Assembly: GCA_964387845.1 (NCBI GenBank)
Contig: CAYLXA010000003.1
Span: 64,001-128,000, forward strand
Direction: 5' to 3'
DNA length: 64,000 bases
Origin: an uncultured bacterium
GTDB lineage: Bacteria > Omnitrophota > Omnitrophia > Omnitrophales > Abzuiibacteriaceae
Shown here: in pieces, positions 39,409-59,245 of the stretch
Layout of the letters: each line of letters starts with the position of its first letter
Position numbering within the stretch: position 1 is the stretch's first letter
Notes under the pieces: generated by a model
What the model was told of the DNA's origin: nothing
The model's input: the letters and a program-made list of their open reading frames with translations, nothing else
Databases searched by the model: none
Program-made: the position numbers and the translations under genes

Positions 39409-39584
39409 TCTCCTTTTGTATGCATTCCTTACTTCCTTACAAAAGGATAGCAGACGTACTACCAGAAATCAAGATTCAAGATAGGTTTTATCTGTTCATG
39501 AGCCGGTTACTAACGTGGAAGGCTTGGGTGGAGATTTGTATGACGATTATGATATTGGATTATTATTTTATGTCAATATAAATT

Positions 39585-39690
39585 ATCCCCCCTCACCCCC
39601 TCCGGGCCTAAGGCCCGATAGGGCCGGAGCCTGCCCTCTCCCAAAGGGAGAGGGGAAAAGCTTTGAAGAAGCACCGAAGCGAATTGGATT
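39585..39690. repeat. repeat family 2 copy (CTCCGGGCC...GGCCGGAG plus CCCTCTCCC-AAA-GGGAGAGGG hairpins)
   Basis: Shares both sub-motifs with 5110-5265 and 37845-37900. Confidence 0.55.
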
Positions 39691-39914
39691 CGCATATGAG
39701 AAATCATGTGCGGAAGCATTGGAAAGCCGATGGCCTGCAGCGATTTGTAGGGCAGGAACAGCGGAAGGTGTTCCAATGCCGGAGCGAATAGATTTCTTAC
39801 AATGAATCCACTGAGCGGAGGGCTTCTTCAAAGCTTTAAACGGAGATTGCTTCGACGACAAATAATGCGTCTTCCGCCAAAAAGCGCGGCGGACAGGCGC
39901 AATGACGGTAAATG

Positions 39915-40361
39915 TTAGTCCGCTAATTTGCCGTTTATTTTGACGCGCATCATCTGTCGCCCCCACCGGAGCGCGGCCTTGTGGCCGCCCATGGAATCGG
40001 GAATAAATAAATCAATGTGCCGGCCGCGGATTTTCCCGCCGCGGTCTTTGACCGTAAATTCCGTCCGGTTTTTTAGGATGCTATAAACTTTCCAGAATTC
40101 CCACGGCCACACGCGCATCAACTTGACTTCGGACCCGAACGGCACATTTTTGGAAGCTGCAATGCCGCCCCAGCTTACTTTTTCGCCGTTTGCAAATTTT
40201 CCGTCTCGAAATTCAGGCACATTAATGCAAATCGGGCAATTGCAATACGCTGTCACAATATAAAGATGTTTGCCCCAAAGTTCGTGATAAGAAACAGCGC
40301 CTACCAAAAAAATCAAAAGCCAAGTGATGATTTTGGCTTTCCACTTTTTAATAATGCCCAC
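39915..40361 (-). CDS. 3D-domain (MltA/YuiC-like) cell-wall-associated protein
   Basis: TAYCNCPIC...GGIAAS...KDRGGKIRGRHIDLF matches the 3D domain; N-terminal TM helix. Confidence 0.65.
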   Translation of the reverse strand: MGIIKKWKAKIITWLLIFLVGAVSYHELWGKHLYIVTAYCNCPICINVPEFRDGKFANGEKVSWGGIAASKNVPFGSEVKLMRVWPWEFWKVYSILKNRTEFTVKDRGGKIRGRHIDLFIPDSMGGHKAALRWGRQMMRVKINGKLAD

Positions 40362-40369
40362 GCTTTGCC

Positions 40370-40573
40370 CTATCCGCCGCGTTCTTCAAGCCACGCCATT
40401 TGGATGGCTTCCAGGATCTTTTCGTTGGAGTTTTTGGGATCATCTGAAAAATCGGCAAGCTCGGTGATCCATTTGTGCAAATCGGTAAAACGAACGGTTA
40501 GAGGGTCAATCTCCGGAAATTTCTCTGCCAGCTGGATGCCGATCTCTTCCGTGTCGGTCCATTTAAGTTTCAT
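40370..40573 (-). CDS. iscX: Fe-S assembly protein IscX
   Basis: 67 aa, [36 protein letters not shown]...[16 protein letters not shown] is near-collinear with IscX/YfhJ. Confidence 0.8.
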
Positions 40574-40938
40574 CAGTGCGACCCCGAAATTTGGTTGATT
40601 GTATATTTCGGAATTTCGACGATAATTTCACCGCCCTTAACGACCGACTGGCATGCAAGACGCGAAGACAGCGTGGCACCGGATGCTTTATCAACCAAAT
40701 CCGCTTCACGGTCTTCCATTTCGGTCAAATTCTCCATGCCTTTTTTGATAATGATGTGGCATGTGGTACAGGCACAATTGCCGCCGCAGGCGTGTTCTAA
40801 ATCGATGCCGTTTGCAAGCGCGATAGACAAAATGGAACCCGGCTCGCCATCGTGGCCTGTTACGGGGGTGTTGGAATCTACCTCGACGGTTTTATTGAGA
40901 GGAAGAAAAGTAACTTTTGCTTTAGCCATTTTGGTCAA
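40573..40938 (-). CDS. fdx: [2Fe-2S] ferredoxin of the ISC system
   Basis: [11 protein letters not shown]...C adrenodoxin-type cysteine motif; ATGA overlap with iscX. Confidence 0.85.
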
Positions 40939-42742
40939 TCCGTTTTCCGACGACCGACTTTTTCAATACGTCATTCATCACAATTTCGGCCAAATGTTCG
41001 GTAGTTTTATTTAAAATTTCGGTCGCGTCTTTGATTTTTTTCCGGTCATTGCCGGAAAGCTCTGTTTTTAAGACCTGAAGTGCATCTTCGATCTTTTTCT
41101 TTTCTTCTTTTGAAACTGCACTACCAGCCTGCACGAGTCCCTTTTCCGTCGCGCGGATAATCAAATCTGCTTCATTCTTAGCATCGATTAAAAGATGCGC
41201 GTCGAAATCTTCTTTGGCTTTCGAGTAAGATTCCTGAACGATATTCTGAATTTCCTGTTCTGTCAATCCATAGGTGGGTTTCACCTCGATCGACTGCTCC
41301 TTACCGTTTCGTTGGTCTTTTGCCTTCACCTGCAAAATTCCGTTTTCATCAATTAAAAACGTAACCTCAATGCGCGGCATACCGGCCTGCATCGGCTCAA
41401 TTCCCTTTAATTGAAACCGCGCAAGACTCCGGCAGTCCTTCGCCAGTTCGCGCTCGCCCTGAACAATGTGAATATCGACCGAAGTTTGGCCGTCTACGAA
41501 AGTTGTGAACACATCGTTGGCACGTGCCGGGATCGTTGAATTCCGCTCGATGATCCTTGCTACCGCACCGCCGTAAGTTTCGATTCCAAGACTGAGCGGG
41601 GTAACATCCAGCAGCAGCATGTCTTTCAGCTGCCCCGTTAAAATATGAGCTTGCACGGCAGCGCCCAAAGCCACAACTTCATCGGGATTCAAGTCGCAGT
41701 GCGGCTCTTTTTCGAATATTCCCTTTACGATTTCTCTGACGATCGGCATGCGCGTCGAGCCGCCGACTAAAATCACTTCATCAATGTCGCTTGCGGAAAG
41801 TTCGGCGTCTTTGAGCGCCTGCTTGCACGGCTTGACGGTCCGTTCCACAATCGGCCTGATGATGGTTTCGAATTCTTTGCGTGTGAGAAAATACTCAAAG
41901 CTCATTTCGGAATTTTTGATTTGAATCGTGGCTTTTTCTTTTATCGAAAGCTCTATTTTTGCCTTCTCGGCCGTTTCGACAATAAGTTGTGTTAACTCCG
42001 GGTTGCCGGCAGCTTTGCTTCCGATTTTTTCGATCAGCATTTGCGCAAGCTTCCAATCCACATCGTCACCGCCCAAATGCGTATCGCCTGCGGTGGCAAG
42101 GACTTCGAAAATTCCGTCATGCAGGTTTAAAATCGAAATATCAAACGTGCCACCGCCCAAATCGTAAACCGCGATTTTGCCGCGGTCTTTTTTATGAAGC
42201 CCGTAAGCAAGGCTCGCCGCGGTCGGTTCGTTAATGATCCGCATCACGTGAAACCCGGCAATTTTCCCCGCGTCTTTTGTGGCTTGCCGCTCTGAATCAT
42301 TAAAATAGGCCGGAACCGTAATGACGGCAGATTTAACGGGTGATTTGAAGAAGGTTTCTGCGCGGGTTTTCAAATTTTTAAGCACAAGCGCCGAAATTTC
42401 CGGAGGTGTTAAAAGCTGATCACCCAATTTGATTCGAATAATTTTTTCATCCGAAAGATCGACGGGATACGGAATGTATTCGGATTTCAAATCGACTTCG
42501 CGCGAGCCTTTTCCCATGAGACGTTTAACGCTCGAAATGGTTAAAGCCGGCTTCGAAACACGCTGATGTTTGGCTTCGTTACCAACCAAAATTTCGCCTT
42601 TCGCGCCGATCGAAACAACGGACGGCAGCAGGATGGTTTTCTTTGAATCCGGAATCGCTTTCGGTTTTCCGGATTCATCCACATAAGCTGCAACGCTAAA
42701 TGTTGTTCCTAAATCAATGCCGATGACTGGTTCCATAATCAA
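40922..42742 (-). CDS. hscA: Fe-S chaperone HscA (Hsp70 family)
   Basis: [29 protein letters not shown] Hsp70 motifs in an isc-operon context. Confidence 0.9.
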
Positions 42743-43311
42743 CTTTCAAGCGCGGTTTCAACCGTTTGGCGCGCCGTTTCTAAATATTTTCGCTCGTGAA
42801 TCAATTTTTGAATTTCTAACGCAAGATTTTCATGCTTCGACCCGCCGGAGTCCCATTCGCGGAATATATCCTGAAGTCTTTCTTCAACGTTTTTGATTTT
42901 ACCCTGCACGGTTTTAAGCGACTCGTTCAGTCCTTGCTCAATCGCTTTCAATTCCTCGGCAGAAACGTTGGATTGCTTTGCTTGCTTCAAGTTATCCACA
43001 TGCTCTTGAATTTCAAACATCTCCGCCAAAAGCTCGGGGGGTGTTTTTTGATCCGTATTCTTTTTGGAAAAACCCTCAATATCCATCATATAACCCGCAC
43101 GAAGCCAAGGATCTTTGATGGTTTCGTAGGCTTTGTTAAGGACGGATGACTGTTCAAGCGCGTTTTGCTTTTCCTGCGGCGTTGCCTGCTGATGATAATC
43201 GGGGTGAAGTTTTTTGGACAGTTCGTAGAATTTTTTTTCGAGCGATTTGGTATCGACCGTTAATTTTTTAGGAAAGCCGAAAAAAGTGAAATAATCCAAA
43301 GTTTTATCCAT
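42739..43311 (-). CDS. hscB: co-chaperone HscB
   Basis: J-domain with HPD (KKLHPDYH) plus a C-terminal helical domain. Confidence 0.8.
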
Positions 43312-43338
43312 GCGAATATCATAGAAAATTTGGGCAGA

Positions 43339-43686
43339 TTAAACCGAAAAGGACTCGCCGCAGCCGCAGCTTTTGGAGGCGTTTGGATTGACGAATTTAA
43401 ATCCGCGGCCTTCAAGGCCGTCTACGAAATCAAGATGAGTGCCGTTCAAATATAAATAGCTCTTAGGATCGACAAACACTTTGACGCCGTTGAAATCAAA
43501 TTCGTTATCGCCCTGCTGTTTCTTATCGAATGCCATATTGTAGGACAAGCCCGAACAGCCGCCGCCCTTGACGCCGAGTCTTAAGCCTAATTCGGCGTTA
43601 TTTTGCTTTTCGAGCAGCCGTTTTACTTCTGCTTGGGCAGATTCGGTGAGAACAACACTGCCCGATGTTTTTTCTGTTTTATCCAT
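43339..43686 (-). CDS. iscA: Fe-S carrier IscA (HesB family)
   Basis: GGGCSGLSY...GCGESF cysteine motifs; start set at MDKTEK. Confidence 0.85.
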   Translation of the reverse strand: MDKTEKTSGSVVLTESAQAEVKRLLEKQNNAELGLRLGVKGGGCSGLSYNMAFDKKQQGDNEFDFNGVKVFVDPKSYLYLNGTHLDFVDGLEGRGFKFVNPNASKSCGCGESFSV

Positions 43687-44089
43687 GAGACACCTTACTT
43701 TCCGCCTGCAAATCTGATTTCTTTTTATAGTCTGAAATGGCTGCTTTGATCGCATCTTCGGCCAAAACCGAACAATGGATCTTAATCGGAGGAAGCGACA
43801 ATTCCTTCACGATATCCGTATTCTTAATCTTGAGCGCATCCTCTACGGTTTTGCCCTTGATCCATTCCGTTGCAAGACTTGATGATGCGATCGCGGAACC
43901 GCAGCCGAACGTTTTGAACTTCGCATCTTCTATAATTCCCTTTTCGTTGACGCGGATCTGCAGTTTCATCACGTCACCGCACTCCGGAGCGCCAACCACA
44001 CCAGTGCCGACATCCTTCGACGTTTTTTCGAAACTCCCGACATTTCGCGGGTTATTGTAGTGATCTAAAACTTTGTCTGAATAAGCCAT
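43679..44089 (-). CDS. iscU: Fe-S scaffold IscU
   Basis: GAPECGDVM, FKTFGCGSAIASSS and HCSVLA motifs; SD gggaga before the MAYSDK start. Confidence 0.9.
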   Translation of the reverse strand: MAYSDKVLDHYNNPRNVGSFEKTSKDVGTGVVGAPECGDVMKLQIRVNEKGIIEDAKFKTFGCGSAIASSSLATEWIKGKTVEDALKIKNTDIVKELSLPPIKIHCSVLAEDAIKAAISDYKKKSDLQAESKVSHG

Positions 44090-44100
44090 TTTATTCTCCC

Positions 44101-45327
44101 TTAATGCGACCCGGTCCACTGGACCGATTTAATGTCTACGCCTTCTTTAAACATTTCATACAGCGGTGATAATTCGCGAAGCCGCGAAACCACTTTCACC
44201 ACTTTTTCAATCGTATAATCGACTTCTTCCTGAGTATTAAACCGGCCCAAGCCGAAACGAATCGATGTGTGCGCCAAATCTTCGCCGACACCGAGCGCTT
44301 TCAATACATAAGAAGGCTCGAGACTTGCTGATGTGCAAGCAGAGCCCGATGAAACCGCGATTTCTTCGTTGATGCCCATCAAGAGCGATTCGCCTTCCAC
44401 AAATGCGAAACTGATATTCAGATTTCCGGGAAGCCTTTTCTCTAAACTTCCGTTTAAATAAACTTCTTCCAACTTTGCGTTGATTCCGTTCCGCAAACGC
44501 TCACGCAATTCGAGTAATCTCTTCGATTCTTGCGGCATATCCTGAACCGCAATTTCGATCGCTTTTCCGAATCCGACAATTCCGGGAACATTCAAAGTGC
44601 CTGAGCGCATGCCTCGCTCATGGCCACCGCCGTGAATAATGGGCGACAATCTCACGCGCGGGTTCTTCTTTCTGACGTAAAGCGCCGCGATGCCTTTTGG
44701 GCCGTACATTTTATGCGCCGATACCGACAATAAATCAACGCCCATCGCTTGAACATCCACCGGGATTTTCCCGACGGCTTGCACGGCATCACAGTGAAAC
44801 AGAATTCCTTTTTCCTTCGCGATTTTCCCGATTTCTGCGACCGGCTGCACAACGCCGATTTCATTATTAGCATGCATAATCGAAATCAAAATTGTCTTGT
44901 CGGTAATCGCCGCTTTTAATTCATCCAACCGAATCAAACCGTCTTTTCCGACCGGCAAATAAGTAACCTGAATGCCTTGGCTTTCCAAATATTTACAGGT
45001 ATCAAGAACGCATTTATGTTCGATCACGCTCGTAATAATATGATTGCCGCGCTCCTTGTACATATCCGCGACACCCTTGATTGCAAGGTTGTTGGATTCT
45101 GTAGCGCCGCTCGTGAAAATAATTTCTTTCGCATCGATCGCGTTAATTGTTTTTGCGATTTTCTCGCGCGCAGCTTCAACAGCAGCCTCAGCGTGCCAGC
45201 CGAACGGATGATTGCGGCTTGCCGCATTTCCGAATTCATTTTTCAAATATGGGAGCATGGCTTCGAGCACACGCGGATCGACCGGCGTTGTTGCTTGATT
45301 GTCCATATAAATCGGTAATTTCACCAT
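44101..45327 (-). CDS. iscS: cysteine desulfurase IscS
   Basis: Class V aminotransferase; SGSACTS active-site Cys loop, SAHK PLP lysine. Confidence 0.9.
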
Positions 45328-45329
45328 GT

Positions 45330-45851
45330 TTACCCCTTCAAAGATTTTTTGGCCGATTTCACTGCGGTTTTGCTGCGGCCGTTATTTTCAACATCCAATA
45401 AATTAAAAGTTGATAAATTCCATTGCTTTTGCAAGTCATCCTCACCTTCGGCGAGCGACGCGAGCGTTACGCTGCTGCAAAAATCATCGATCAATTGCTT
45501 CAGCTTCCGCCAAAACGGCCGGACGCTACAGCTTGAGAAATGCTGGCAAACAATCCGTTCGCGAAGCCTCGGCGAACAAAACACTTCAAATATGTCGCCT
45601 TCTACCGATTCAATAACTTGCTTCAATGTGATTTGTTCGGGTTCTTTTGCAAGCACAAACCCGCCGTAAATTCCCTTAACACTTTTGATAATGCCGCCCT
45701 TGCGGAGCTTCACGAAAATCTGTTCTACATAATCCTTGGGCAGATGTTCGGCATCGGACACTTCCGAAACCGAAATCGGGTTGCCGTTTGCATGATCGCA
45801 AAGGTACTTTAAACTGACTAATGCGTATTCGCTTTTGGTGGTTAGCTTCAT
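45330..45851 (-). CDS. iscR: Rrf2-family regulator IscR
   Basis: Rrf2 HTH ([12 protein letters not shown]) and C-x-x-C/C spacing; SD aagga before MKLTT. Confidence 0.75.
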
Positions 45852-45981
45852 AGATTTATCCTTAAACCCGCAAAACCCACTAAAATTGTACAATATATGA
45901 CTGTTTTAATCAAGATTTATTAAAAAAGTCTCAAAATTTATCTTAAGTTGTTTAATTATAATAATTTATAACTATTACGAA

Positions 45982-46936: not shown

Positions 46937-47533
46937 TCAAAACAAACTGGTAGGAAATGCGGTTTCTTTCTTGGCCGTTTCAGCTTCCGACCAATTCACG
47001 GGAACTTCATACTTTTGCCAATCGCGCGTCGAAATAAAGTACACTTTGTTTTTCTTTTTCCCGTACTCGTACAAATCTTTTGTGATCCGGACGTCATCCA
47101 GGCAATATTTTTTGAGCAGATCCATCTGACCTCGCTTGTACATTTCAACCGCATCAATACCTTGCCCGCTTTTGCTGATTTCGAGGCTCGCTTGCGCCAA
47201 ACTCTGAAGACTGACGCGATGGCCCCGGACCCGCTCGATCTCATCCAGCAAATCCAAGACCGGAATAGAGTCGGCTTGTGTAAACAGATAAGGCTGCAGG
47301 ACAGGCAAATCAAACCGACGGATATTAAACCCGATAAGAAGGTCGCAAGATTTTAGCCGTTCTTCCAATTGATGAATTTCCCGCTCTTCGTAGCAGACAT
47401 ATTCATCCGTCAGATAATCGTAAGTGCCCACTACCGACACTTTGAGCTTATGAAGATTTTGCCTTCCGACTTCGTCGAAGGTTTTTTGGGTTTCCAGATC
47501 GAGAACTAAAATATTAGGGCGATGTTTAGACAT
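46937..47533 (-). CDS. RNase H-like 3'-5' exonuclease (PolB-exo-like, PF10108-type)
   Basis: ILVLDLETQ (DxE) motif plus downstream acidic residues; start taken at the internal MSKHRP. Confidence 0.5.
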   Translation of the reverse strand: MSKHRPNILVLDLETQKTFDEVGRQNLHKLKVSVVGTYDYLTDEYVCYEEREIHQLEERLKSCDLLIGFNIRRFDLPVLQPYLFTQADSIPVLDLLDEIERVRGHRVSLQSLAQASLEISKSGQGIDAVEMYKRGQMDLLKKYCLDDVRITKDLYEYGKKKNKVYFISTRDWQKYEVPVNWSEAETAKKETAFPTSLF

Positions 47534-47598
47534 GAATAACGGATAGTGTTGCAAAAAAAATCTCAAAACTCAAGTATAAATTCGGGAAATTACGGCGA

Positions 47599-47627
47599 TT
47601 GACAAAAAAGCTTTGCTTCATTATATT
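47599..47627 (+). promoter_or_regulatory. sigma70 promoter for the S-box leader
   Basis: TTGACA - 17 nt - TATATT immediately upstream of the riboswitch. Confidence 0.55.
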
Positions 47628-47635
47628 ATCCGCTC

Positions 47636-47806
47636 GTATATCTTCTTATTGCGAGCGGTTGTCTCCATGAAATGCGTGATTTGGAGGCATCTTCGCCCAA
47701 AAGGCGGAGAAATTGAGGGACAGGCCCTATGAAACCGCGGCAACCAATTCGCTCAAAAGCAGGCGAATCCGGTGCCAACTCCTGAGAGCTGATGATTACT
47801 AGAAGC
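47636..47806 (+). ncRNA. SAM-I (S-box) riboswitch
   Basis: cttcttat... ggcggag...gagggacaggccctatgaaaccgcggcaacc...ggtgccaactcctgagagc...agaag matches the SAM-I conserved core (GGNGGAGGGACUGGCCCGAUGAAACCCGGCAACC...GGUGCCAAUUCCUGCA). Confidence 0.75.
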
Positions 47807-47841
47807 CCGGCTCTAAAATAAGGGGAGGAAAAGTTTTGATT

Positions 47842-47880
47842 AAACCTCTTCTTGAATGCTCAAGAAAGAGGTTTTTTTAT
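47842..47880 (+). terminator. riboswitch expression-platform intrinsic terminator
   Basis: aaacctcttcttg-aatgct-caagaaagaggttt followed by tttttatttt, then RBS taggggg and the ATG at 47899. Confidence 0.7.
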
Positions 47881-47898
47881 TTTTAGGGGGTTTTACAA

Positions 47899-49128
47899 AT
47901 GAGTTTTGTCAGAGGCCTTAAGTGCCGCGAATGCGGAAAAATTTACCCGAAGCAGGCGCTCTATGTTTGCGAATTTTGCTTTGGTTCTTTGGAAGTTGAC
48001 TACGATTACGACGCGATTAAAAAAGCCGTCACACGTGAAAAAATCGAAAAAGGCCCCAGGAGCCTTTGGCGCTACAAAGCGCTTCTTCCCATAGACAACG
48101 AACCGACGGTCGGATTTCATTCGGGATTTACGCCGCTCGTGAAAGCCAACCAACTTGCCAAAACTTTGGGTGTTTCCGAGCTGTATATTAAAGACGATAC
48201 CGTTTGCCATCCGACATTTTCATTCAAAGACCGCGTCGTATCCGTTGCGCTCTCGAAAGCCCGCGAGCTCGGTTTCGATACGGTTTCCTGCGCTTCGACC
48301 GGAAACTTGGCGAACTCGGTTGCGGCCCACGCCGCCGCCGCAGGATTGAAGCGCTACATCTTTATCCCTCACGATTTGGAATACGCCAAAGTGCTCGGCA
48401 GTTTGATTTATCAGCCCAATTTAATTGCCGTGAAAGGCAATTATGACGACGTGAACCGGCTTTGTTCTGAAATCGCAGGCAAATACAAATGGGCTTTTGT
48501 GAACGTCAATATTCGCCCTTACTACGCGGAAGGTTCCAAAACTTTCGGATATGAAATAGCCGAACAGCTCGGCTGGAAAACGCCGAAGCATTTAGTCTGC
48601 CCGGCCGCAAGCGGTTCGCTGCTCACCAAAATCTGGAAAGCGTTTAAAGAATTTCACAAACTGGGATTCATCGAAAAACCGGAAACGAAGCTTTATTGCG
48701 CGCAGCCCGAAGGCTGTTCGCCGATTTCGGCTGCGATTAAAAATAAATCGGATGCGATCAAGCCTGTCAAGCCGAACACGATCGCCAAGTCGCTTGCGAT
48801 CGGAAATCCGGCGGATGGTTATTATGCCAAAGATGCCGTTTTGGAATCAGGCGGCGCTTCGATGATCGCCACAGACGATGAAATCCGGGAAGCGATTAAA
48901 CTGCTGGCGCAAACCGAAGGCATTTTCACGGAAACCGCGGGCGGCGTTACGGTTGCGTGCGCGAAAAAATTGATCGAACAGGGCGTCATTCCAAAAAATG
49001 AATCCATTGTGATTTCAATCACCGGAAACGGGCTCAAAACACAAGGCGCCATCCGGGATTCTGTCGGAGAGCCATCAATGATCGAGCCGAACTTAAAATC
49101 ATTTGAATCGATTCTGAACAAAAAATAA
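47899..49128 (+). CDS. threonine-synthase-family PLP enzyme with N-terminal zinc ribbon (ThrC, or MetM-like homocysteine synthase)
   Basis: CRECG...CEFCFGSL ribbon; SFKDR PLP-lysine motif; fold-type II PLP core. Confidence 0.8.
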   Translation: MSFVRGLKCRECGKIYPKQALYVCEFCFGSLEVDYDYDAIKKAVTREKIEKGPRSLWRYKALLPIDNEPTVGFHSGFTPLVKANQLAKTLGVSELYIKDDTVCHPTFSFKDRVVSVALSKARELGFDTVSCASTGNLANSVAAHAAAAGLKRYIFIPHDLEYAKVLGSLIYQPNLIAVKGNYDDVNRLCSEIAGKYKWAFVNVNIRPYYAEGSKTFGYEIAEQLGWKTPKHLVCPAASGSLLTKIWKAFKEFHKLGFIEKPETKLYCAQPEGCSPISAAIKNKSDAIKPVKPNTIAKSLAIGNPADGYYAKDAVLESGGASMIATDDEIREAIKLLAQTEGIFTETAGGVTVACAKKLIEQGVIPKNESIVISITGNGLKTQGAIRDSVGEPSMIEPNLKSFESILNKK

Positions 49129-49165: not shown

Positions 49166-49447
49166 ATGGCTGTCAAAGTAAGAATCCCGACACCTTTGCA
49201 AAAACTCACCAAAGATCAAGAAGAAGTAGAGTTAAAAGCAGCTTCTATTAAAGAAATGATTAACAGCCTTGAAAAACAATTCCCCGGAATCAAAGACCGG
49301 CTTTGTGATGAATCCGGCAACATCCGCCGCTTCGTCAACATTTTCCTCAACGAAGAAGACATTCGCTTCTTGAATAAAGAAGAAACTGTTTTGAAAGACG
49401 GCGATGAAGTTTCGATTGTCCCCGCAATTGCCGGAGGCGCAAGGTAA
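49166..49447 (+). CDS. MoaD/ThiS-family sulfur-carrier protein with GG-AR C-terminus
   Basis: 93 aa beta-grasp-like; ends ...SIVPAIAGGAR, i.e. Gly-Gly plus two extra residues. Confidence 0.6.
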   Translation: MAVKVRIPTPLQKLTKDQEEVELKAASIKEMINSLEKQFPGIKDRLCDESGNIRRFVNIFLNEEDIRFLNKEETVLKDGDEVSIVPAIAGGAR

Positions 49448-50430
49448 TGACGGTCACCACAAGCTTGATCGGTGACTTACGGGACCGCGTGCTGTTGGGC
49501 GGTGAAATTACGCGCGAAGAAGCGTGTTCATTAATTGAAATTCAGGATGAACAGCTTTTAAACGAACTCGTCAACGCCGCTCACGAAATTACGGTTTTCT
49601 TCAATTCCGAGCAGGCTCACCTTTGCTCGCTCATCAACGCAAAAAGCTATCTTTGCAGTGAAGACTGCGGATTTTGTTCCCAATCGACTCATTTTAAAAC
49701 CGAAGCCTCGCGCTACGAATTGCTCTCGGCAGATGAGATCGTCAAATCCGCGAAAAATGTAGAAGCACAAGGGATCGAAAATTTCTGTATCGTGACAAGC
49801 GGCGGTTCTTTAAATGAAAAGGAGTTTGAGCATATCATCGAAGCGGTTAAACGCTTGAAAGCCGAAACCAAACTCAACATTGACGGCTCGCTTGGTTTTC
49901 TGACGCCTGAACGCGTCGAAAAATTGAAAGAAGCCGGTATGCGGCGCTTCAACGATAATTTACAGTCCTCACGCGAATTTTATAACAAGATCGTTTCCAC
50001 ACATTCCTATGATAAACGTCTTGAGACCTTGGATTTCCTGCGCCAGGGTGATATGGATTTGTGTTCGGGCGGTATTTTCGGCATGGGCGAAACACGCGAA
50101 GACCGCGTGAATATGGCATTTGAACTAAAACGTTTTACGCCCGAATGCGTTCCGGTTAATATTTTAAATCCCCGGCCCGGGACACCGCTTGAGAATGCGC
50201 CCAAAATTGACCCGATGGAAGTTGTCAAAGCCATCGCGGTTTACCGCTTCATCCTTCCTAAATCCAATATTAAACTCGCCGGCGGCCGCGAAATTAATTT
50301 GGGTGAATTTCAAAAACTTGCTTTAAAAGCCGGTGCCAATGGCCTTGTCTCGGGCGGTTACCTCACAACAGGCGGAAACTCCTTCGACACCGACAAGGCC
50401 ATGCTCAAAGAAGCCGGTTACGACGTTTAG
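49447..50430 (+). CDS. bioB: biotin synthase
   Basis: CSEDCGFCSQS radical-SAM triad; YNHNL-like, CSGGI.G.GET and NILNPRPGTPLE blocks collinear with E. coli BioB; TAATG start/stop overlap with the carrier gene. Confidence 0.85.
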   Translation: MTVTTSLIGDLRDRVLLGGEITREEACSLIEIQDEQLLNELVNAAHEITVFFNSEQAHLCSLINAKSYLCSEDCGFCSQSTHFKTEASRYELLSADEIVKSAKNVEAQGIENFCIVTSGGSLNEKEFEHIIEAVKRLKAETKLNIDGSLGFLTPERVEKLKEAGMRRFNDNLQSSREFYNKIVSTHSYDKRLETLDFLRQGDMDLCSGGIFGMGETREDRVNMAFELKRFTPECVPVNILNPRPGTPLENAPKIDPMEVVKAIAVYRFILPKSNIKLAGGREINLGEFQKLALKAGANGLVSGGYLTTGGNSFDTDKAMLKEAGYDV

Positions 50431-50441
50431 CTTTCCTTTCG

Positions 50442-51170
50442 ATGGAAGTTTCTCTCGCTGGAAAAACCATTTTAATCACCGGCGGAACAAGCGCGCTGGG
50501 ATCCGAATTCGTTAAACGAGCGCTCAAAGAAAATGCCAAAATTTTCTTCACCTACTACACGAATGAAACCAAAGCCCGCGAACTTTCGGATTTGGGCGCA
50601 ATTGGTTTTAAAATCGACCTGTCAAAAATTGCTGAAATCAAATCTCTGGCTGCACAACTAAAAGCCCATACAAACGCGCTTGATGGCTTAATCAACAATG
50701 CTGCGTCCGTTAAAGACAGGACGGTTCAAAATATGTCGGATGAAGAATGGGATGAAGTGTTAAACACCGATCTAAAAGCAGCTGCTTTTATGGTCAAAGA
50801 AATGCTCCGATTTTTATTTAAAAAGAAACCGAGCAAAATTTTAAATGTGATCAGCCGCGTCGGTGTTCAAGGCGCTTTCGGCCAGGCCAATTACGCGGCG
50901 GCAAAAGGCGGACTGATTTTGCTCACGAAAAGCCTGGCCAAAGAACTCGGGAAAAAGAAAATTCTGATCAATGCTCTCAATCCCGGATTCATGAAATCCA
51001 AAATGACAGACGTGCTGCCTGCTGAGGTTATTGAGCGCAACCGACATGAAAGCGTCTTGGATGAAATCTCGAATCCTGAAGAAGCCGCGGATTTTATGAT
51101 TTATTTAATGTCGGACAAAATGACGCTTGTGAGCGGCCAAATTTTTAACATCGAGTCGAGATTGCGATGA
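50442..51170 (+). CDS. SDR-family 3-oxoacyl-ACP reductase-like
   Basis: ITGGTSALG Rossmann motif, NYAAAKGG (YxxxK). Confidence 0.75.
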   Translation: MEVSLAGKTILITGGTSALGSEFVKRALKENAKIFFTYYTNETKARELSDLGAIGFKIDLSKIAEIKSLAAQLKAHTNALDGLINNAASVKDRTVQNMSDEEWDEVLNTDLKAAAFMVKEMLRFLFKKKPSKILNVISRVGVQGAFGQANYAAAKGGLILLTKSLAKELGKKKILINALNPGFMKSKMTDVLPAEVIERNRHESVLDEISNPEEAADFMIYLMSDKMTLVSGQIFNIESRLR

Positions 51171-52363
51171 ATCGTGTTGTGGTTACCGGCATCGGCTGCG
51201 TAGCGCCCATCGGAAATAATCAAAAAGAGTTCGCCAAAAACCTGAGCGAAGGAAAATCGGGAGCTGGGCCAATTTCAAAATTTGACACGTCAAACTTCCC
51301 CGTTAAAAAAGCGTTTGAAGTCCGTTCGTTCTCACCTGTGCCCGCTTCTAAAGCGCTCGATCCTTTCATTCAATACGGCCTCACAGCCGCTGAAGAAGCG
51401 ATTCGGGACAGCAAGCTCGATATTCCATCGATGGACCCTTATCGAGTTGGAATCGCGGTTAGTTCCAGCAAAGGCGGCATGACAACGCTCGAAAAATTCC
51501 GTGATCGATTCTTGAAACGGCCAAGCGCGCTTCTCGGAGCCCGGATTTACGCCAATACCGTTCCGAATATTTTGTCGCAGTGGATCGCGAGGCGTTGGGA
51601 ACTCAAAGGCCCCGCAAAACCTGCCGTGGCAGCCTGCGCAACCGGAACTTACGCAATTATTGAGGGCATCCGGATGATCGAGGATGATGAAACGGATGTC
51701 TGCATCGCCGGCGCAAGCGATGCGTCGATCACCAAACTAATGCTTGCCGGATATCACCAAATGGGCGTTCTTTCACCGAACGGTGTTTCTCCGTTTGATA
51801 AAACGCGCGGCGGATTTTTGGTCGGTGAAGGCGCGGGTGTTGTTATTTTAGAAAAGGAAAACCACGCGAAAGCCAGACATGCACAAATTTACGGGCGGAT
51901 TTTGAGCCATACATACGGAAATGAATGCCGGCACTTAATTTCGTTTCCGGTTGAAAGCGACGGCCTTTCATCGACGCTTATGCGGTCTATCAAAAGTGCT
52001 AATATTACGCCTTGTGACATTGATTCGCTTCAACTCCACGGAACCGCAACAGTTTCCGGTGATTTATATGAAACCGCCCAAATTAAAAAAGCATTTGGCA
52101 AGGATGCTTACAAGATTTCGATGAGCGCCATCAAATCCATGATCGGACACACGGCCGGTGCGGCAGGCGCTTTTTCATTTATCGCAAACTTGCTTTCGCT
52201 GCGCGACCAAATCATTCACCCGACGATTAATTTGAATTCGCCGGATGCCGAATGCGATTTAGACTATACGCCTTGTTATTCTAAAAAGAAAAAAATTAAA
52301 GTCGCCGGTTCGATCAGCATGGGTTTCGGCGGCCACATTGGGGCTATTTTGGTGGGAAAATGA
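51167..52363 (+). CDS. beta-ketoacyl-ACP synthase I/II-like
   Basis: Active-site Cys (AACATG), HGTAT and IGHTAGAAGA His motifs. Confidence 0.8.
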   Translation: MNRVVVTGIGCVAPIGNNQKEFAKNLSEGKSGAGPISKFDTSNFPVKKAFEVRSFSPVPASKALDPFIQYGLTAAEEAIRDSKLDIPSMDPYRVGIAVSSSKGGMTTLEKFRDRFLKRPSALLGARIYANTVPNILSQWIARRWELKGPAKPAVAACATGTYAIIEGIRMIEDDETDVCIAGASDASITKLMLAGYHQMGVLSPNGVSPFDKTRGGFLVGEGAGVVILEKENHAKARHAQIYGRILSHTYGNECRHLISFPVESDGLSSTLMRSIKSANITPCDIDSLQLHGTATVSGDLYETAQIKKAFGKDAYKISMSAIKSMIGHTAGAAGAFSFIANLLSLRDQIIHPTINLNSPDAECDLDYTPCYSKKKKIKVAGSISMGFGGHIGAILVGK

Positions 52364-53508
52364 AAACCGATCAGGAATTTTCCAGTATTTCAGAAGAACT
52401 TCAATTCTTAAAAGATAGTCATCTGTTCCGAAAATTAAGAACCCTGGAAAGCATTGACTCGACTCATGTGTTATTAAATGGGAAAAAGGTTTCTTTGTTT
52501 TGTCATAACGACTACCTGGGCCTAAGCAAACACCCTGATGTTGCAGAAGCCTTCTCACAAGGTGTCCGTGATTTTGGCGCCGGCTCGGGCGCTGCGCGGC
52601 TCATCACCGGCAATACAACCGTATTTGAAAAATTAGAAGAGCGTCTCGCCCAGTTTAAGAAAAAAGAACGCGCACTTCTGTTTTCGACCGGTTATTTGGC
52701 TAATCTCGGCATCATCTCGGCCTTTTGCGAGAAAGAGGATGTTGTGATTGTCGATAAGCTTAATCACGCTTCAATCATTGATGCCTGCAAGCTTTCGGGC
52801 GCAACCATTCGTGTTTATCCGCACAAAGATTTGGATTATTTGGAGAAAATTCTCAAGCAATCTGATCGATTCCGAAGAAAATTAATCGTTACGGATTCTG
52901 TTTTCAGCATGGACGGCGACTTGGCCCCGCTGCCTGAAATTGTAAAGCTTAAGAACCGCTACGGCGCTTATTTAATGATTGATGAAGCGCATGGAACCGG
53001 CGTTTTTGGAAAGTCAGGACGCGGAGCAGCGGAATATTTGAACGTAGAGGATGAAATCGACATTTCGATGGGAACTTTGTCAAAAGCGTTTGGGACGCAC
53101 GGCGGATTTGTGGCGGGGAGTTCTGAGCTCATCGAATTTTTAATCAACCGGAGCCGTAGTTTTATATTCTCAACCGCCCTTCCGCCCGCGGTTTGCGCGG
53201 CAAGCTTGAAATCGTTGGAATTAATCGAACAAAAGCCGGAGCTAAGAGATCGTTTGTGGAAAAATATTAAAAGCACGGTAGACAACCTAAAACTTTCCGG
53301 CACTTCACCGATTATCCCTGTCATGATTGGCGATGAGCAAAAAGCGATGAATTTATCCGAAAAACTACTCGAAAACAGCATTTTGATCCCGGCAGTTCGG
53401 TATCCGACAGTCCCTAAAAAATCCGCGCGTCTTCGCTTAACTGTTTCGGCTGCTCACAGCCAAAGCGACCTGGAAACCCTGATTTCTACACTTAAAAAAC
53501 ACCTTTAA
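52360..53508 (+). CDS. bioF: 8-amino-7-oxononanoate synthase (alpha-oxoamine synthase family)
   Basis: Class II aminotransferase; GTLSKAFG PLP lysine; in the bioB cluster. Confidence 0.7.
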   Translation: MKTDQEFSSISEELQFLKDSHLFRKLRTLESIDSTHVLLNGKKVSLFCHNDYLGLSKHPDVAEAFSQGVRDFGAGSGAARLITGNTTVFEKLEERLAQFKKKERALLFSTGYLANLGIISAFCEKEDVVIVDKLNHASIIDACKLSGATIRVYPHKDLDYLEKILKQSDRFRRKLIVTDSVFSMDGDLAPLPEIVKLKNRYGAYLMIDEAHGTGVFGKSGRGAAEYLNVEDEIDISMGTLSKAFGTHGGFVAGSSELIEFLINRSRSFIFSTALPPAVCAASLKSLELIEQKPELRDRLWKNIKSTVDNLKLSGTSPIIPVMIGDEQKAMNLSEKLLENSILIPAVRYPTVPKKSARLRLTVSAAHSQSDLETLISTLKKHL

Positions 53509-55870: not shown

Positions 55871-57049
55871 TTACGACGTCACTTTCGACCGCATAGCTTC
55901 GATTAAAATTTCAGCAACTTCGGGCCGCGTGATTTCAATCGGCGGAATTTCACCGTTCCGAAGCATTTCGCGAAGCTTTGTGCCCGAAACGTTAAAAGCA
56001 TCTGCATTCGGCGGCGCGGTTTTAAAACTTACCATTCCGCCTGTCTTTTTATCAAAAAATGTGTGTTCAAATTTGAAAAGCTCGATTCCGATATCCTTCG
56101 GATCAAACTTATCGAAAATAAGCTGCGCATCATAGGAACCATAATAAGACTTTCCGTCCGGTTTGCTTGCGCCTGCGTGGTCACGGCCGACGATAAAATG
56201 CGTGCAGCCGTAGTTTTTACGCACAATCGCGTGCCACACGGCTTCGCGCGGCCCCGCGTAACGCATCGCGGCAGGAAATACGGCTAGTATTGAGCGGTCT
56301 TTCGGATAATATTTGTCGAGAAGCACTTGATAACATTTCATACGCACATCGGCCGGAACATCGTCGCCTTTTGTCTGCCCGACCAGCGGATGAATTAAGA
56401 GGCCGTCTACACATTCAAGCGCCACTTTTGTTAAATATTCATGCGCGCGATGAATCGGATTACGCGTTTGGAAAGCAACAATAGTGCGCCAATTGCGTTT
56501 CTTGAATTCTTCACGGGTTTCGGCGGGGCTTAAACGATATTCCGTAAAATCTTTGTGTTTCGGCTGATTAAATAACGAAACCTTGCCCCCGACAAGCCAG
56601 TTGCCCATGAGCCCGATTTGGACATTGCCGGGATGTGCAGCATCATCCGTTCCGTAGAGCAGCATTGAATGTTTCTGCTTGTCGTGTTTATAAATACCTT
56701 CGATTTCTAAAATCGCAAGCGGGTGGCCTGAAGCATCTTTCAGCGCAACTTCCTTTTGGTTTGCCACTTTTGATTTTTCATCATCCGTCAGAGACTTGAC
56801 GACCGGAATTGTCCAAGGAAGACCGCTTGTTAAAACTAAATTATCCAGACAGGAATTAAAATCATCTTCACTCATGAAGCCATCCAACGGACTCATGGCG
56901 CCGGATGCGATCATTTCAAGATCACAGAGTTCGCGCTCAGATAGCGCAAGCGCAACTAGCTTGCTTGCTTTGCTTTCCGCTTCGTCGCGTTTCTTGCCTT
57001 TTAATTCACGGTTAATTAAGGTTCCGCCGTGTGCTGCAATGCTACTCAT
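55871..57049 (-). CDS. sat: sulfate adenylyltransferase (homo-oligomeric Sat type)
   Basis: QTRNPIHRAHE and HFIVGRDHAG motifs. Confidence 0.85.
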   Translation of the reverse strand: MSSIAAHGGTLINRELKGKKRDEAESKASKLVALALSERELCDLEMIASGAMSPLDGFMSEDDFNSCLDNLVLTSGLPWTIPVVKSLTDDEKSKVANQKEVALKDASGHPLAILEIEGIYKHDKQKHSMLLYGTDDAAHPGNVQIGLMGNWLVGGKVSLFNQPKHKDFTEYRLSPAETREEFKKRNWRTIVAFQTRNPIHRAHEYLTKVALECVDGLLIHPLVGQTKGDDVPADVRMKCYQVLLDKYYPKDRSILAVFPAAMRYAGPREAVWHAIVRKNYGCTHFIVGRDHAGASKPDGKSYYGSYDAQLIFDKFDPKDIGIELFKFEHTFFDKKTGGMVSFKTAPPNADAFNVSGTKLREMLRNGEIPPIEITRPEVAEILIEAMRSKVTS

Positions 57050-57819
57050 ATATCACTTCCCCCGTCTGTTGATTTGTCTGCTTTTTCTGTTTTTGCCGAA
57101 GGTTTCGGTTTCATGAATGTATGAAGGCCGCATTCGGTTTTATCTTTGCCTGCCCAGCGGCCCGAACGTTCGTCATCGCCCGGCTGAACTGGTTTCGTGC
57201 ACGGCCAGCAGCCGATGCTTAAATATCCTTTTTCAAAAAGCGCGTGAATCGGCAGTTTGTGCTCTTTGATGTACCACCAAATGTCGCCTGAGGTGACATT
57301 GGCAAATGGGTTGATTTTATAAAGACCGCCTTCATATTCTTCAACAATCTGGATTTCTTTGCGTGTCTTGGATTGTGAGCGGCGGATCCCGGAAATCCAG
57401 GCATCGAGGCCCTTCAAAGCTTCCTGCATAGGCTCTACTTTGTTAATTTGGCAGCAAAGATCCGGATTTTTTTCGTAGGGTTTCCCGTCATAATCCTTCA
57501 CCAATTGTTCCCGGCGCTTGGGGTCCGCTCTTAAGTCAACCACGTTGGTCAATTTGAGCCTGTCTGTAACCAATTTTTTGAAATCAAGCGTTTCCTGAAA
57601 ATGAAAACCGGTCTCAAGAAAGAAGATTTTAATCACGGGATCAATTTTGGAAACCATGTCGAGAAGGACGATGCTTTCGGTCTGAAATGAGGAGCTCACG
57701 GCAATCTTTGGGCGAAATTCTTCAATCGCCCAGCGCAGAATCACCTGCGGCTGTTCTTTTTCAAACTTTTCGTTTAATGCCGCTAAATCCAGCTTTTTAC
57801 TCACCAGCATGCCTTTCAA
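57046..57819 (-). CDS. cysH: adenylylsulfate/phosphoadenylylsulfate reductase
   Basis: PAPS-reductase fold, ECGLH C-terminal motif, plus a CC...CxxC cluster (SIGCWPCT) typical of APS reductases. Confidence 0.8.
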   Translation of the reverse strand: MKGMLVSKKLDLAALNEKFEKEQPQVILRWAIEEFRPKIAVSSSFQTESIVLLDMVSKIDPVIKIFFLETGFHFQETLDFKKLVTDRLKLTNVVDLRADPKRREQLVKDYDGKPYEKNPDLCCQINKVEPMQEALKGLDAWISGIRRSQSKTRKEIQIVEEYEGGLYKINPFANVTSGDIWWYIKEHKLPIHALFEKGYLSIGCWPCTKPVQPGDDERSGRWAGKDKTECGLHTFMKPKPSAKTEKADKSTDGGSDI

Positions 57820-58697
57820 GATTCCTTCGTGTTTAACCGCAAACGCAAACGATCGATCGTGTCATAATACAAACAAGCGCCTTCGCCCATCCAGCCCAAA
57901 TCAACATTGGGCCGGTTATCGCCGTGAAAATCGCTGCCGCCGGTTGTAATGAGACTGAATCGATCCGCTACTTTCTTATAATAAGAAGCTTCTTCCCTGG
58001 ACTGGCAGCTCGAAAATACTTCCATGCCGTCTAGGCCTTGATCGACAAGCTTTGAAATTTCCGTTTCAAATTCCTTTTCGCCTTTTAATTTCAGCTGCTT
58101 CGGATGCGCCAAAGAAGCCACACCGCCTGCCGCATGAATCATCCGGATCGCGGTTTCGCTTGTGATGTTGCGCTTATCCACATAAGCCGGGGCGCCTTTT
58201 GCCAAAAAGCGGTTGAACGCATCCTGCGAATCTTGCGCGTAGCCTTTTTTGACCAGCACGCGCGCAAAATGCGGCCGGCCGATTTGATCACCGCCCGACT
58301 CTGCGGCAACTTCATCCAGCGTGATTTTAACGCCAAGCTTGCCCAATTTTTCAATGATCTGCGGATTGCGCTTTGAGCGCGCATCCTGAACTAATTTCAA
58401 ACCACTCAACAACTCTTGATTCGCCGTGTTGATGAAATAGCCGAGAATATGCATCGTACCCGGCGGAAAAATGACGCTGATCTCAACGCCGGCAATTACT
58501 TCAACGCCCAGCTTTGCGCCGGCGTCTTTCGCTTCGCGCACGCCGCTCACCGTATCATGATCGGTAAGCGCGATGCAATCTACCCGGCGCGACTTTGCAC
58601 GCGCAACCAGCTGTTCGGGCGTTAAGGTGCCGTCTGAATGCGTGGTATGCATATGCAAATCCACGCGCTTCAGAAATTTTTCTTCGGAAGAAATCAC
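57816..58697 (-). CDS. PHP-family phosphoesterase, probable 3',5'-bisphosphate nucleotidase (pAp phosphatase)
   Basis: [12 protein letters not shown]...ALTDHDT PHP motifs; embedded in the sulfate-activation operon with 4-nt overlaps. Confidence 0.55.
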
Positions 58698-59245
58698 TTT
58701 GCGGCTGCCAATTCGTCCTGTGTCACAAACCCAAGCTCTTCTAACTTCTGGAGAACTCTTTCGGCGGATTGTTCCGGCGTTTCTTTGTGAGTTTCACAAA
58801 CCACTTCGGCACTCAGCGGCTCTTCGTAAGGATCGTCAACACCTGTGAAACCTTTTATTTCTCCGGCCATGGCTTTTTTATAAAGCCCTTTGGTATCGCG
58901 CTCTGCGCAAGTCTCAAGCGGGCATTTCGCGTAAACCTCGATAAAATTTCCGATCAAAGAACGGTTATAATCGCGCACTTCGCGGTACGGCGAAATCGCG
59001 GCCGACAAAACAATGACGTCGTTGCGCGTGAGCAAATCGCAAACAAAACCGATGCGCTTGATATTGGTATCGCGGTCTTCTTTTGAAAACCCGAGCCCTT
59101 TGCTAAGATTGGTACGGACAACATCGCCGTCCAAAATTTCCACTTTACGGCCTGCTTTTTTGAGCCGTTTCTCAACAATTCGAGCGATGGTTGACTTGCC
59201 AGAACCCGATAAACCGGTAAACCATACTGTGACACCTTTTGACAT
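58694..59245 (-). CDS. cysC: adenylylsulfate kinase
   Basis: [17 protein letters not shown]-loop and the APS kinase core. Confidence 0.85.

Follow-up and report, generated by a model that had tools for sequence, protein, structure and literature searches.

A probable SAM-I riboswitch with a branched P2 arm ahead of a threonine synthase-like gene and a sulfur carrier gene in Omnitrophota

SAM-I (S-box) riboswitches, which are described by the Rfam model RF00162 and include the leaders of T. tengcongensis metF and B. subtilis yitJ, control sulfur and methionine genes. They combine a four-way junction of helices P1 to P4, a P2 kink-turn with its G-A pairs, a pseudoknot, and a conserved pocket for S-adenosylmethionine (SAM) with a terminator/antiterminator platform that turns expression OFF. 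Docking of the P2 loop in SAM-I requires the kink-turn (PMC4316175). A SAM riboswitch also precedes metM of S. albulus, according to PMC12172450. MetM, a threonine synthase homolog that is often misannotated as threonine synthase, converts O-phosphohomoserine to homocysteine with the thiocarboxylated carrier MetO, and Mec and MoeZ serve carrier maturation and carrier thiocarboxylation, respectively (GapMind 2026 preprint, which cites Hasebe et al. 2024 for the reaction). The present analysis concerns a stretch of 64,000 nucleotides (nt) from an Omnitrophota contig (CAYLXA010000003.1), referred to here as the window. Its leader at positions 47599 to 47884 shares the SAM-I characters listed above, the kink-turn as a sequence motif and the OFF logic as a prediction, and, judging from its sequence, is very probably a SAM-I riboswitch that turns expression OFF via transcription termination ahead of genes for a ThrC-like pyridoxal phosphate (PLP) enzyme and a ThiS-like sulfur carrier. 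The riboswitch class, the terminator/antiterminator mechanism, and the association with metM all have precedents. The novelty lies in a branch of ~55 nt in an otherwise size-invariant P2 arm, beside the kink-turn. The window differs from known SAM-I riboswitches in this branch, which has 54 nt and two hairpins, in a P2 interior of 74 nt versus 20 to 22 nt, and in its host phylum, Omnitrophota. The portions of the literature reached by the search contained no mention of SAM-I riboswitches together with Omnitrophica and no described SAM-I aptamer with a P2 insertion.

The closest homologs of the window enzyme (74 to 95% identity) are proteins from metagenome-assembled genomes (MAGs) named Candidatus Omnitrophica or Omnitrophota. 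Leaders for comparison were taken from the contigs of these homologs, plus one from a metagenome pattern scan, and carry locus designations (L081 and so on). The unconstrained minimum free energy (MFE) fold of positions 47635 to 47885 (−85.3 kcal/mol; z = −3.9 relative to shuffles) contains P1, P2a, both hairpins of the insert, P2b, P3, P4, and the terminator, and P1 to P4 form the four-way junction of the class (Table 1). The P1, P3, and P4 pairings on which a sequence-only reading of this DNA had made its S-box call depend are all recovered in this fold. Its core strings GAGGGACAGGCCCTATGAAACCGCGGCAACC and GGTGCCAACTCCTG are present as well, whereas the third, GGCGGAG, is the 3' arm of inserted hairpin B. 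The positions in contact with SAM, which we take from the T. tengcongensis structure to be the A-U of P1, the GAG of J1/2, and, within P3, the A of GCAACC and U-G of GGUGCC, fall in columns that are invariant across 15 aligned leaders, the window included. In the window, the A-U at 47648 to 47649 in the P1 5' strand corresponds to the SAM-contacting A6/U7, and P3 contains the conserved A (47742) and U-G (47773 to 47774) of the pocket. The kink-turn is intact as a sequence motif: opposite G2n-A1n, a three-base bulge (UAU, 47728 to 47730) is followed by G1b-A2b (47731 to 47732; nomenclature as in PMC4316175 and PMC10573300), and the 54-nt branch breaks into the noncanonical (NC) helix immediately 5' of G2n.

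Table 1. Features of the riboswitch leader and the downstream genes in the window
Feature	Positions	Strand	Description
Sigma-70-type promoter	47599-47627	+	−35 TTGACA 47599-47604; 17-nt spacer; −10 TATATT 47622-47627
P1 5' strand	47641-47650	+	UCUUCUUAUU; folds, pair counts, full-length match to model R1
J1/2	47651-47655	+	GCGAG with invariant GAG; in the fold, J1/2 is GCGA and G47655 is paired within P2a
P2a 5' strand	47655-47660	+	GCGGUU; core CGGU 47656-47659 pairs with ACCG 47734-47737
Inserted hairpin A	47661-47688	+	GUCUCCA / UGGAGGC; 7 bp; 14-nt loop
Inserted hairpin B	47690-47710	+	UCUUCGCC / GGCGGAGA; 8 bp; loop CAAAA
Insert tail	47711-47714	+	AAUU; links hairpin B to the kink-turn GA; boundaries from insert-free L084
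Kink-turn and P2b	47715-47732	+	G2n-A1n 47715-47716; GGG 47717-47719 / CCC 47725-47727; loop ACAGG
P2a 3' strand	47733-47738	+	AACCGC; folds, pair counts
P3	47739-47776	+	GGCAACC 47739-47745 / GGUGCC 47771-47776; distal stem AUUCGCU / GGCGAAU
J3/4	47781-47784	+	CCUG; pseudoknot with P2b loop CAGG (47721-47724)
P4	47785-47814	+	AGAGCUG / CGGCUCU; 16-nt loop
P1 3' strand	47817-47826	+	AAUAAGGGGA; 47819-47826 shared with antiterminator
Antiterminator	47819-47854	+	UAAGGGGAGG (47819-47828) with CCUCUUCUUG (47845-47854); 10 bp
Intrinsic terminator	47842-47884	+	Stem AAACCUCUUCUUGA / UCAAGAAAGAGGUUU, 47842-47855 / 47860-47874; U-run to 47884
ThrC-like PLP enzyme gene	47899-49128	+	409 aa; ~55-aa Cys-rich N-terminal extension; candidate MetM (homocysteine synthase, O-phosphohomoserine)
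ThiS/MoaD-like sulfur carrier gene	49166-49447	+	93 aa; C terminus ...AGG-AR; candidate MetO
bioB (49447-50430), fabG-like, fabF-like, bioF	49447-53508	+	Co-oriented downstream genes

Comparative pairing upholds the core helices. In the window and 14 related leaders, aligned after their inserts had been excised in silico at self-chosen, L084-guided boundaries, 95.3% of the cells in P1, P2a, P2b, the P3 base, and the pseudoknot pair, compared with 42 to 53% when the partners are slid by 1 to 3 columns. Double-sided changes number 34 cells versus 9.9 expected, a value reached by 0 of 500 shuffles. P2a is paired in all 15 sequences, with three of its four pairs covarying; P2b is invariant and 100% paired; the P3 base is 100% paired, with the 46/91 pair changing from G-C to A-U; and 95% of the cells of the CAGG/CCUG pseudoknot are paired, the second pair changing from A-U to U-A. 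P4 is backed by the Rfam alignment and the fold, and its stem is kept while its loop varies in L081 and L092. With the inserts left in place, MAFFT set GAG-CGG on the incorrect side of the insert, and its alignment could not serve for P2a.

The expression platform has the parts that an attenuator of this type needs. The promoter matches the consensus at 11 of 12 positions, a quality of site expected once by chance in an 800-nt stretch (shuffle mean, 1.0), and TTGACA-17-TAnAnT recurs at the same place in seven relatives (L081, L083, L084, L086, L087, L089, and L092); transcription would start at about 47634 to 47636. The 14-bp terminator stem is followed by UUUUUUUAUUUUU (about −16.5 kcal/mol) and has a one-base bulge, because of which a simple terminator scan overlooked it. 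The ribosome-binding site AGGGGG (47885 to 47890) comes immediately after, ahead of the ATG at 47899, and a homologous terminator is found in all relatives. The promoter, and a strong terminator directly before the ribosome-binding site, had both been proposed from the sequence and are both present. P1 and the terminator each exclude the antiterminator: one purine-rich segment is contested by the pyrimidine-rich 5' strand of P1 and the 5' arm of the terminator. When the transcript stops at 47856 or 47860, the MFE fold swaps P1 for the antiterminator, and it reverts to P1 plus terminator once the 3' arm of the terminator is present. Such competition among P1, antiterminator, and terminator is the S-box design in its classical form; all relatives conserve it, and it implies that high SAM should terminate transcription. 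At high SAM, the four-way-junction aptamer (47641 to 47826) would bind SAM with P1 locked, the terminator hairpin and U-run would form, and transcription would stop ahead of the operon. At low SAM, 47819 to 47828 would pair with the terminator 5' arm as antiterminator, and RNA polymerase would read through. In the leader of L093 (L093:810-1025), ~45-nt palindromic repeats (AAACCAGATGCCAGTTACCAG...CTGGAAACTGGATTCCGGTATCTGGTT) occur, one copy of which separates the P1 3' strand from the terminator while another lies past the terminator; they look like small hairpin-forming elements inserted in the expression platform.

Several points weigh against this identification. A scan of the whole window at the Rfam gathering thresholds gave no matches, and a permissive scan of 47500 to 47950 matched RF00162 at 47707 to 47817 with 38.0 bits (E = 3.7e-7), short of the 44.4-bit gathering score; this alignment was confined to model positions 11 to 100, with P1 absent and the outer P2 pairs flagged as broken. 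R1, a covariance model made from the core alignment, matched the intact window leader over its full length (47641 to 47827) with 70.8 bits, in part by construction, as R1 was trained on excised versions of the same leaders. Beside the self-chosen excision in the core alignment, which favors the proposed structure, the insert type of the window is present in only three sequences, and the insertion adjoins the kink-turn, so that impaired folding is possible. The low RF00162 score is explained by the 54-nt insertion in P2, since the near-identical but insert-free L084 scores 83.4 bits over the full model. Among insert-bearing leaders, scores are 46.2 bits in L087, 44.6 in L089, 42.6 in L081, and 38.8 in L092, and L093 gave no detection at E ≤ 0.001; with the window included, four of the six distinct insert-bearing leaders lie under the gathering score. 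The sequence-only reading had staked its call on a covariance model scoring the region. At its curated threshold RF00162 does not, and the insertion accounts for the shortfall. The wider claim of that reading, a SAM-I riboswitch with its own promoter and intrinsic terminator, is borne out by the local RF00162 match, the folds, and the comparative pairing.

The insert occupies 47661 to 47714 on the P2 5' strand, between P2a and the kink-turn G-A. An extra hairpin between P1 and P2 had been suspected in this region. The hairpin is real (A in Table 1), but it is one of two, and both lie inside P2, after the P2a 5' strand. The window insert alone folds with z = −3.9 relative to shuffles. A dispersed repeat or mobile element was considered and rejected, as both hairpins are single copy in the window even with 3 mismatches allowed, and an Rfam scan with E up to 10 found no known RNA motif within the insert. 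L084 is near-identical to the window in both flanks of the insert (...CUUAUUGCGAG-CGG-UG-GAGGGACAGGCCCUAUGAAACCGCGGCAACC...), and L083 and L086 are also insert-free, with CCG/CGG instead of CGG/CCG in P2a. The window's own insert type is carried by L081 and L092, in which the stem of hairpin A is retained and its loop varies. Across these three sequences, 98% of the insert hairpin cells pair versus 39 to 54% when slid, and hairpin B shows three double-sided changes (two from C-G to U-A, one from C-G to G-C). Other inserts are CCCC-AAAA-GGGG plus a long second hairpin in L087, CCCC-N8-GGGG plus CCCUCGCUU...AAGCGAGGG in L089, and one long hairpin, CCCUGACUUU...AAAGUCAGGG, in L093. The four insert types thus have unrelated sequences and occupy the same site with 53 to 61 nt, and each of the six distinct inserts has a more stable fold than its shuffles (z = −2.8 to −5.8).

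Segment lengths were measured on 30 aptamers aligned by Infernal to R1; in this alignment the insert ended up in the P2b loop and the anchoring of L089 and L093 was local, so that segment lengths were all that was taken from it. The P2 interior has 20 to 22 nt in all 24 insert-free aptamers, which come from several phyla, and 74 to 79 nt in the correctly anchored insert-bearing leaders (74 nt in the window). In L089 and L093, it has 81 and 73 nt, respectively, equal to 20 nt plus the insert length. Over the same 30 aptamers, the P3 loop ranges from 16 to 98 nt and the P4 segment from 10 to 49 nt. A metagenome scan with the pattern TTAT-N3-GAG-NGG, 38 to 68 nt, GAGGGA-NN-GGCCC-NN-TGA recovered three contigs, all of this clade; the pattern is context specific and blind to CCG-type P2a (e.g., L093), which makes the rarity of the insert an impression rather than a census. 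As far as seen among the sequences examined, the P2-branch variant is confined to one Omnitrophota clade. P4 is variable in the same relatives: L083:7831-7924, L086:2751-2852, L087:2781-2943, and L093:658-810 have no P4 helix, and in them J3/4 (...UCCUG) abuts AAAAUAAG, the P1 3' strand. The P4-less L083, L086, and L087 score 46 to 71 bits on RF00162, and P4-less L093 is undetected. The presence of P4 and that of the P2 insert assort independently in close relatives, with all four combinations seen.

The inserts are flanked by direct repeats of 2 to 3 nt, namely, UUG in the window (47661 to 47714), UGA in L089 (L089:2760-2821), and CAG in L093 (L093:679-732). Their 3' ends resemble the adjoining aptamer, as in GCGAGGGAUU before GAGGGA in L089 and CAGGGACAG before AGGGACAGG in L093. 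Because the insert mimics aptamer sequence, both Rfam and R1 begin their L089 match inside the insert. These features suggest that the inserts may have arisen by local tandem duplication followed by compensatory drift. The branch converts part of P2 into a multi-helix junction and would be a tolerated peripheral expansion, with the SAM pocket left intact.

The chief competing view of the insert is that it is a functional module that might stand in for or help the kink-turn in directing P2, slow folding during transcription so as to tune the decision window, or bind a protein as a second input. Insertion at exactly one site, within a narrow range of 53 to 61 nt and with stable stems despite unrelated sequences, would fit such a module, as would the covariation of hairpin B, the restriction of the feature to this clade in the metagenome pattern scan, and the constant 20 to 22 nt of P2 in the 24 other aptamers, which makes the site not generally permissive. 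The near-identical leaders without an insert (L083, L084, and L086) indicate that it is dispensable, and the four types share no conserved loop or stem sequence; the lack of an Rfam motif and the signs of local duplication point the same way. A functional module is therefore rather unlikely. A stronger form of the proposal, which we regard as doubtful to the same degree, is that the Omnitrophota leaders make up a structural subclass of SAM-I in which a size-constrained insert of ~55 nt, on the NC side of the G-A pairs, rebuilds P2 as a three- or four-way junction and the branch actively aids folding. It could do so, for example, by stabilizing the kink, by taking its place, or by setting the time of the co-transcriptional decision, and the arrangement would differ from the k-junction.

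The third helix of a k-junction faces the bulge from the non-bulged strand, which it enters between 1n and −1n, and the tandem G-A pairs are kept (PMC10573300). This third helix is coaxial with the canonical (C) helix, and k-junctions are known from thiamine pyrophosphate riboswitches and DUF-3268 (Lilley laboratory). In the window, the P2 5' strand would be the non-bulged strand, running through P2a (the NC helix), G2n, A1n, and the GGG of the C helix. The likeness is that an extra helix leaves the non-bulged strand and the tandem G-A/A-G motif is kept. The differences are that the branch in these leaders joins 5' of G2n, on the side of the NC helix (P2a), that it usually has two hairpins, and that it is known from sequence alone. 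Membership among k-junctions was rejected on the position of the branch 5' of G2n (47715), as shown by comparison with L084.

The genes behind the leader are probably a MetM/MetO-like pair, which would make homocysteine from O-phosphohomoserine and the carrier thiocarboxylate. The gene for a ThrC-homologous PLP enzyme stands beside one for a ThiS/MoaD-type Gly-Gly carrier. Among the 80 loci listed as matches in a genome-contig search (top identity, 73%; the closest Omnitrophota genomes lie outside this list), a ThiS-like gene is downstream of the thrC-like gene in 72, representing many phyla, and directly downstream in most. A SAM-I aptamer is upstream of the metM-like gene in the window and in 20 of the 80, which belong to Planctomycetota, Verrucomicrobiota, Zetaproteobacteria, Binatia, Deltaproteobacteria, and others. 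It mostly lies within ~300 nt of the gene, and ~0.9 to 1.2 kb upstream in L016 and L071. Homologs of the enzyme at 63% identity are also found in Actinomycetota MAGs (L063). The window resembles S. albulus in having a ThrC-homologous gene followed by a ThiS/MoaD-type gene, an upstream SAM riboswitch, and a threonine synthase annotation. It differs in belonging to another phylum, in having a SAM-I riboswitch with an expanded P2, in an operon that adds bioB, fabG-like, fabF-like, and bioF genes, and in that Mec and MoeZ were not found among the scanned window ORFs.

Some observations count against the MetM/MetO-like assignment and the regulatory unit built on it. The ThrC-like enzyme passes the NCBIfam thrC equivalog TIGR00260 with 276.5 bits (cutoff, 167.1), although MetM-type proteins evidently fall within this model too. 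Among solved structures, true threonine synthases come closest, and they match residues ~55 to 390 only, leaving the Cys-rich N terminus of ~55 residues unmatched. No MoeZ- or Mec-like gene was found among the scanned window ORFs, which lie beyond ~27.4 kb apart from one giant ORF, and the GG-AR tail of the carrier means that a trimming protease would be needed. Finally, bioB under SAM-OFF control lacks an obvious logic.

An ordinary threonine synthase, placed under SAM control to balance the O-phosphohomoserine branch point, would account for the TIGR00260 score above the cutoff, the best structural matches, and the name "threonine synthase" given to relatives in the source records. Shutting off a threonine synthase at high SAM would work in the wrong direction, as O-phosphohomoserine would be diverted from threonine when methionine is plentiful. 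The ThiS-like gene downstream in 72 of the 80 listed loci and the N-terminal extension that threonine synthases leave unmatched do not favor it either, and according to GapMind 2026, MetM is often misannotated in this way. An ordinary threonine synthase is thus improbable: SAM-OFF logic fits homocysteine synthesis, which favors the MetM/MetO-like assignment. The methionine-pathway role that had been proposed for the thrC-like gene fits the ThiS-like neighbor, the nearby sulfate assimilation genes, the recurrent SAM-I aptamers, and the published MetM/MetO.

It is very unlikely that the leader is a decaying, nonfunctional S-box relic with its P2 broken by the insertion and an operon that is constitutive or otherwise regulated. 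The subthreshold score with its shortened alignment and the insertion abutting the kink-turn could be read in this way, as could the absence of a detected riboswitch in some Omnitrophota relatives (L097, L099, and L001 to L007). Against a relic, all ligand-contacting and junction nucleotides are kept, and compensatory change upholds P1, P2a, P3, the pseudoknot, and the insert stems; the terminator and antiterminator are intact and conserved, and leaders with an insert have survived in four or more diverged lineages.

Rare SAM-I variants that sense spermidine (PMC10853860; Cell Rep 2023) resemble the window leader as uncommon forms of the SAM-I fold that standard annotation can mishandle, and the window aptamer is atypical and under the curated threshold; but the spermidine riboswitches are mutated at SAM-contacting positions and lie near polyamine genes, whereas the window leader keeps its SAM pocket invariant, has a peripheral helix inserted, and stands before sulfur and methionine genes, so that an altered ligand specificity is extremely unlikely. 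Equally hard to credit is the topology drawn in the sequence-only reading, with GGCGG (47703 to 47707) as the P2 5' strand paired to CCGC and a single extra hairpin in J1/2: GCGG is able to pair with CCGC in the window and L081, and the Rfam local alignment also begins near 47707, but L092 has CAGCAAAG at the equivalent of 47703 to 47707, which cannot pair with CCGC, and yet keeps hairpin B by compensatory changes, the trinucleotide after the GAG of J1/2 pairs and covaries with the strand before GGCAACC in 15 of 15 sequences (CGG/CCG, CCG/CGG, and UGG/CCA), and the insert-free relatives define the junction, which places the true P2 5' strand (CGGU) directly after J1/2.

The genes of the unit and its surroundings show further features. 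The stop codon of the ThiS-like gene overlaps the bioB start at 49447, an arrangement of translational coupling that is also present in L081 and L083 to L097. The series bioB, fabG-like, fabF-like, and bioF after the ThrC-like/ThiS-like pair was seen in Omnitrophota only, and a bioB homolog is nearby in 3 of the 80 listed loci, two of them among the closest relatives of the window enzyme. Biotin synthase, which consumes SAM and inserts sulfur, would share the SAM-OFF unit with a sulfur carrier. In one Omnitrophota lineage (L095:3899-4138 and L096:1931-2170), a 79-aa NIL-domain gene separates bioB from the ThiS-like gene; this domain occurs elsewhere in the methionine transporter MetN and in homocysteine synthesis proteins of methanogens. 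Downstream, sulfate assimilation genes occupy 55871 to 59245 on the minus strand (ATP sulfurylase, phosphoadenosine phosphosulfate [PAPS] reductase, PHP phosphatase, and adenosine phosphosulfate [APS] kinase) and are adjacent in relatives too. In L083 to L089, the sulfate genes instead share the strand of the riboswitch and immediately precede it. Upstream in the window, a complete isc-type gene cluster for iron-sulfur assembly occupies 39583 to 45893 on the minus strand (Rrf2/IscR, IscS, IscU, IscA, HscB, HscA, ferredoxin, and IscX). The identities of the isc and sulfate genes come from synteny with the L081 gene table, direct scans having covered ATP sulfurylase and a few flanking window ORFs. 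In L099 (L099:1865-4080), a second PALP gene (318 aa, the size of CysK/CysM) lies 11 nt upstream of the thrC-like gene and behind genes for APS kinase and PAPS reductase, and no riboswitch was detected in this locus. The giant ORF of the window (10732 to 27243, minus strand) is a single frame of 5,503 codons with two Pfam domains, the PEP-binding domain of PEP-utilising enzymes (residues ~1,700 to 1,900) and an asparaginase N-terminal domain (residues ~4,500 to 4,670); the remainder has no family match.

A genuine riboswitch that is missed by curated covariance thresholds through the insertion of a helix means that riboswitch censuses of candidate phyla would undercount. Natural leaders that have or lack a branch beside the G-A pairs, and that have or lack P4, are matched material on how far the k-turn tolerates elaboration. 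In at least six groups of phylum rank, SAM-I riboswitches stand before the ThrC-like/ThiS-like pair, which is independent regulatory evidence for a methionine-pathway (MetM/MetO-type) enzyme, and by this evidence the widespread label "threonine synthase" on the SAM-I-controlled ThrC-like enzyme would be a misannotation.

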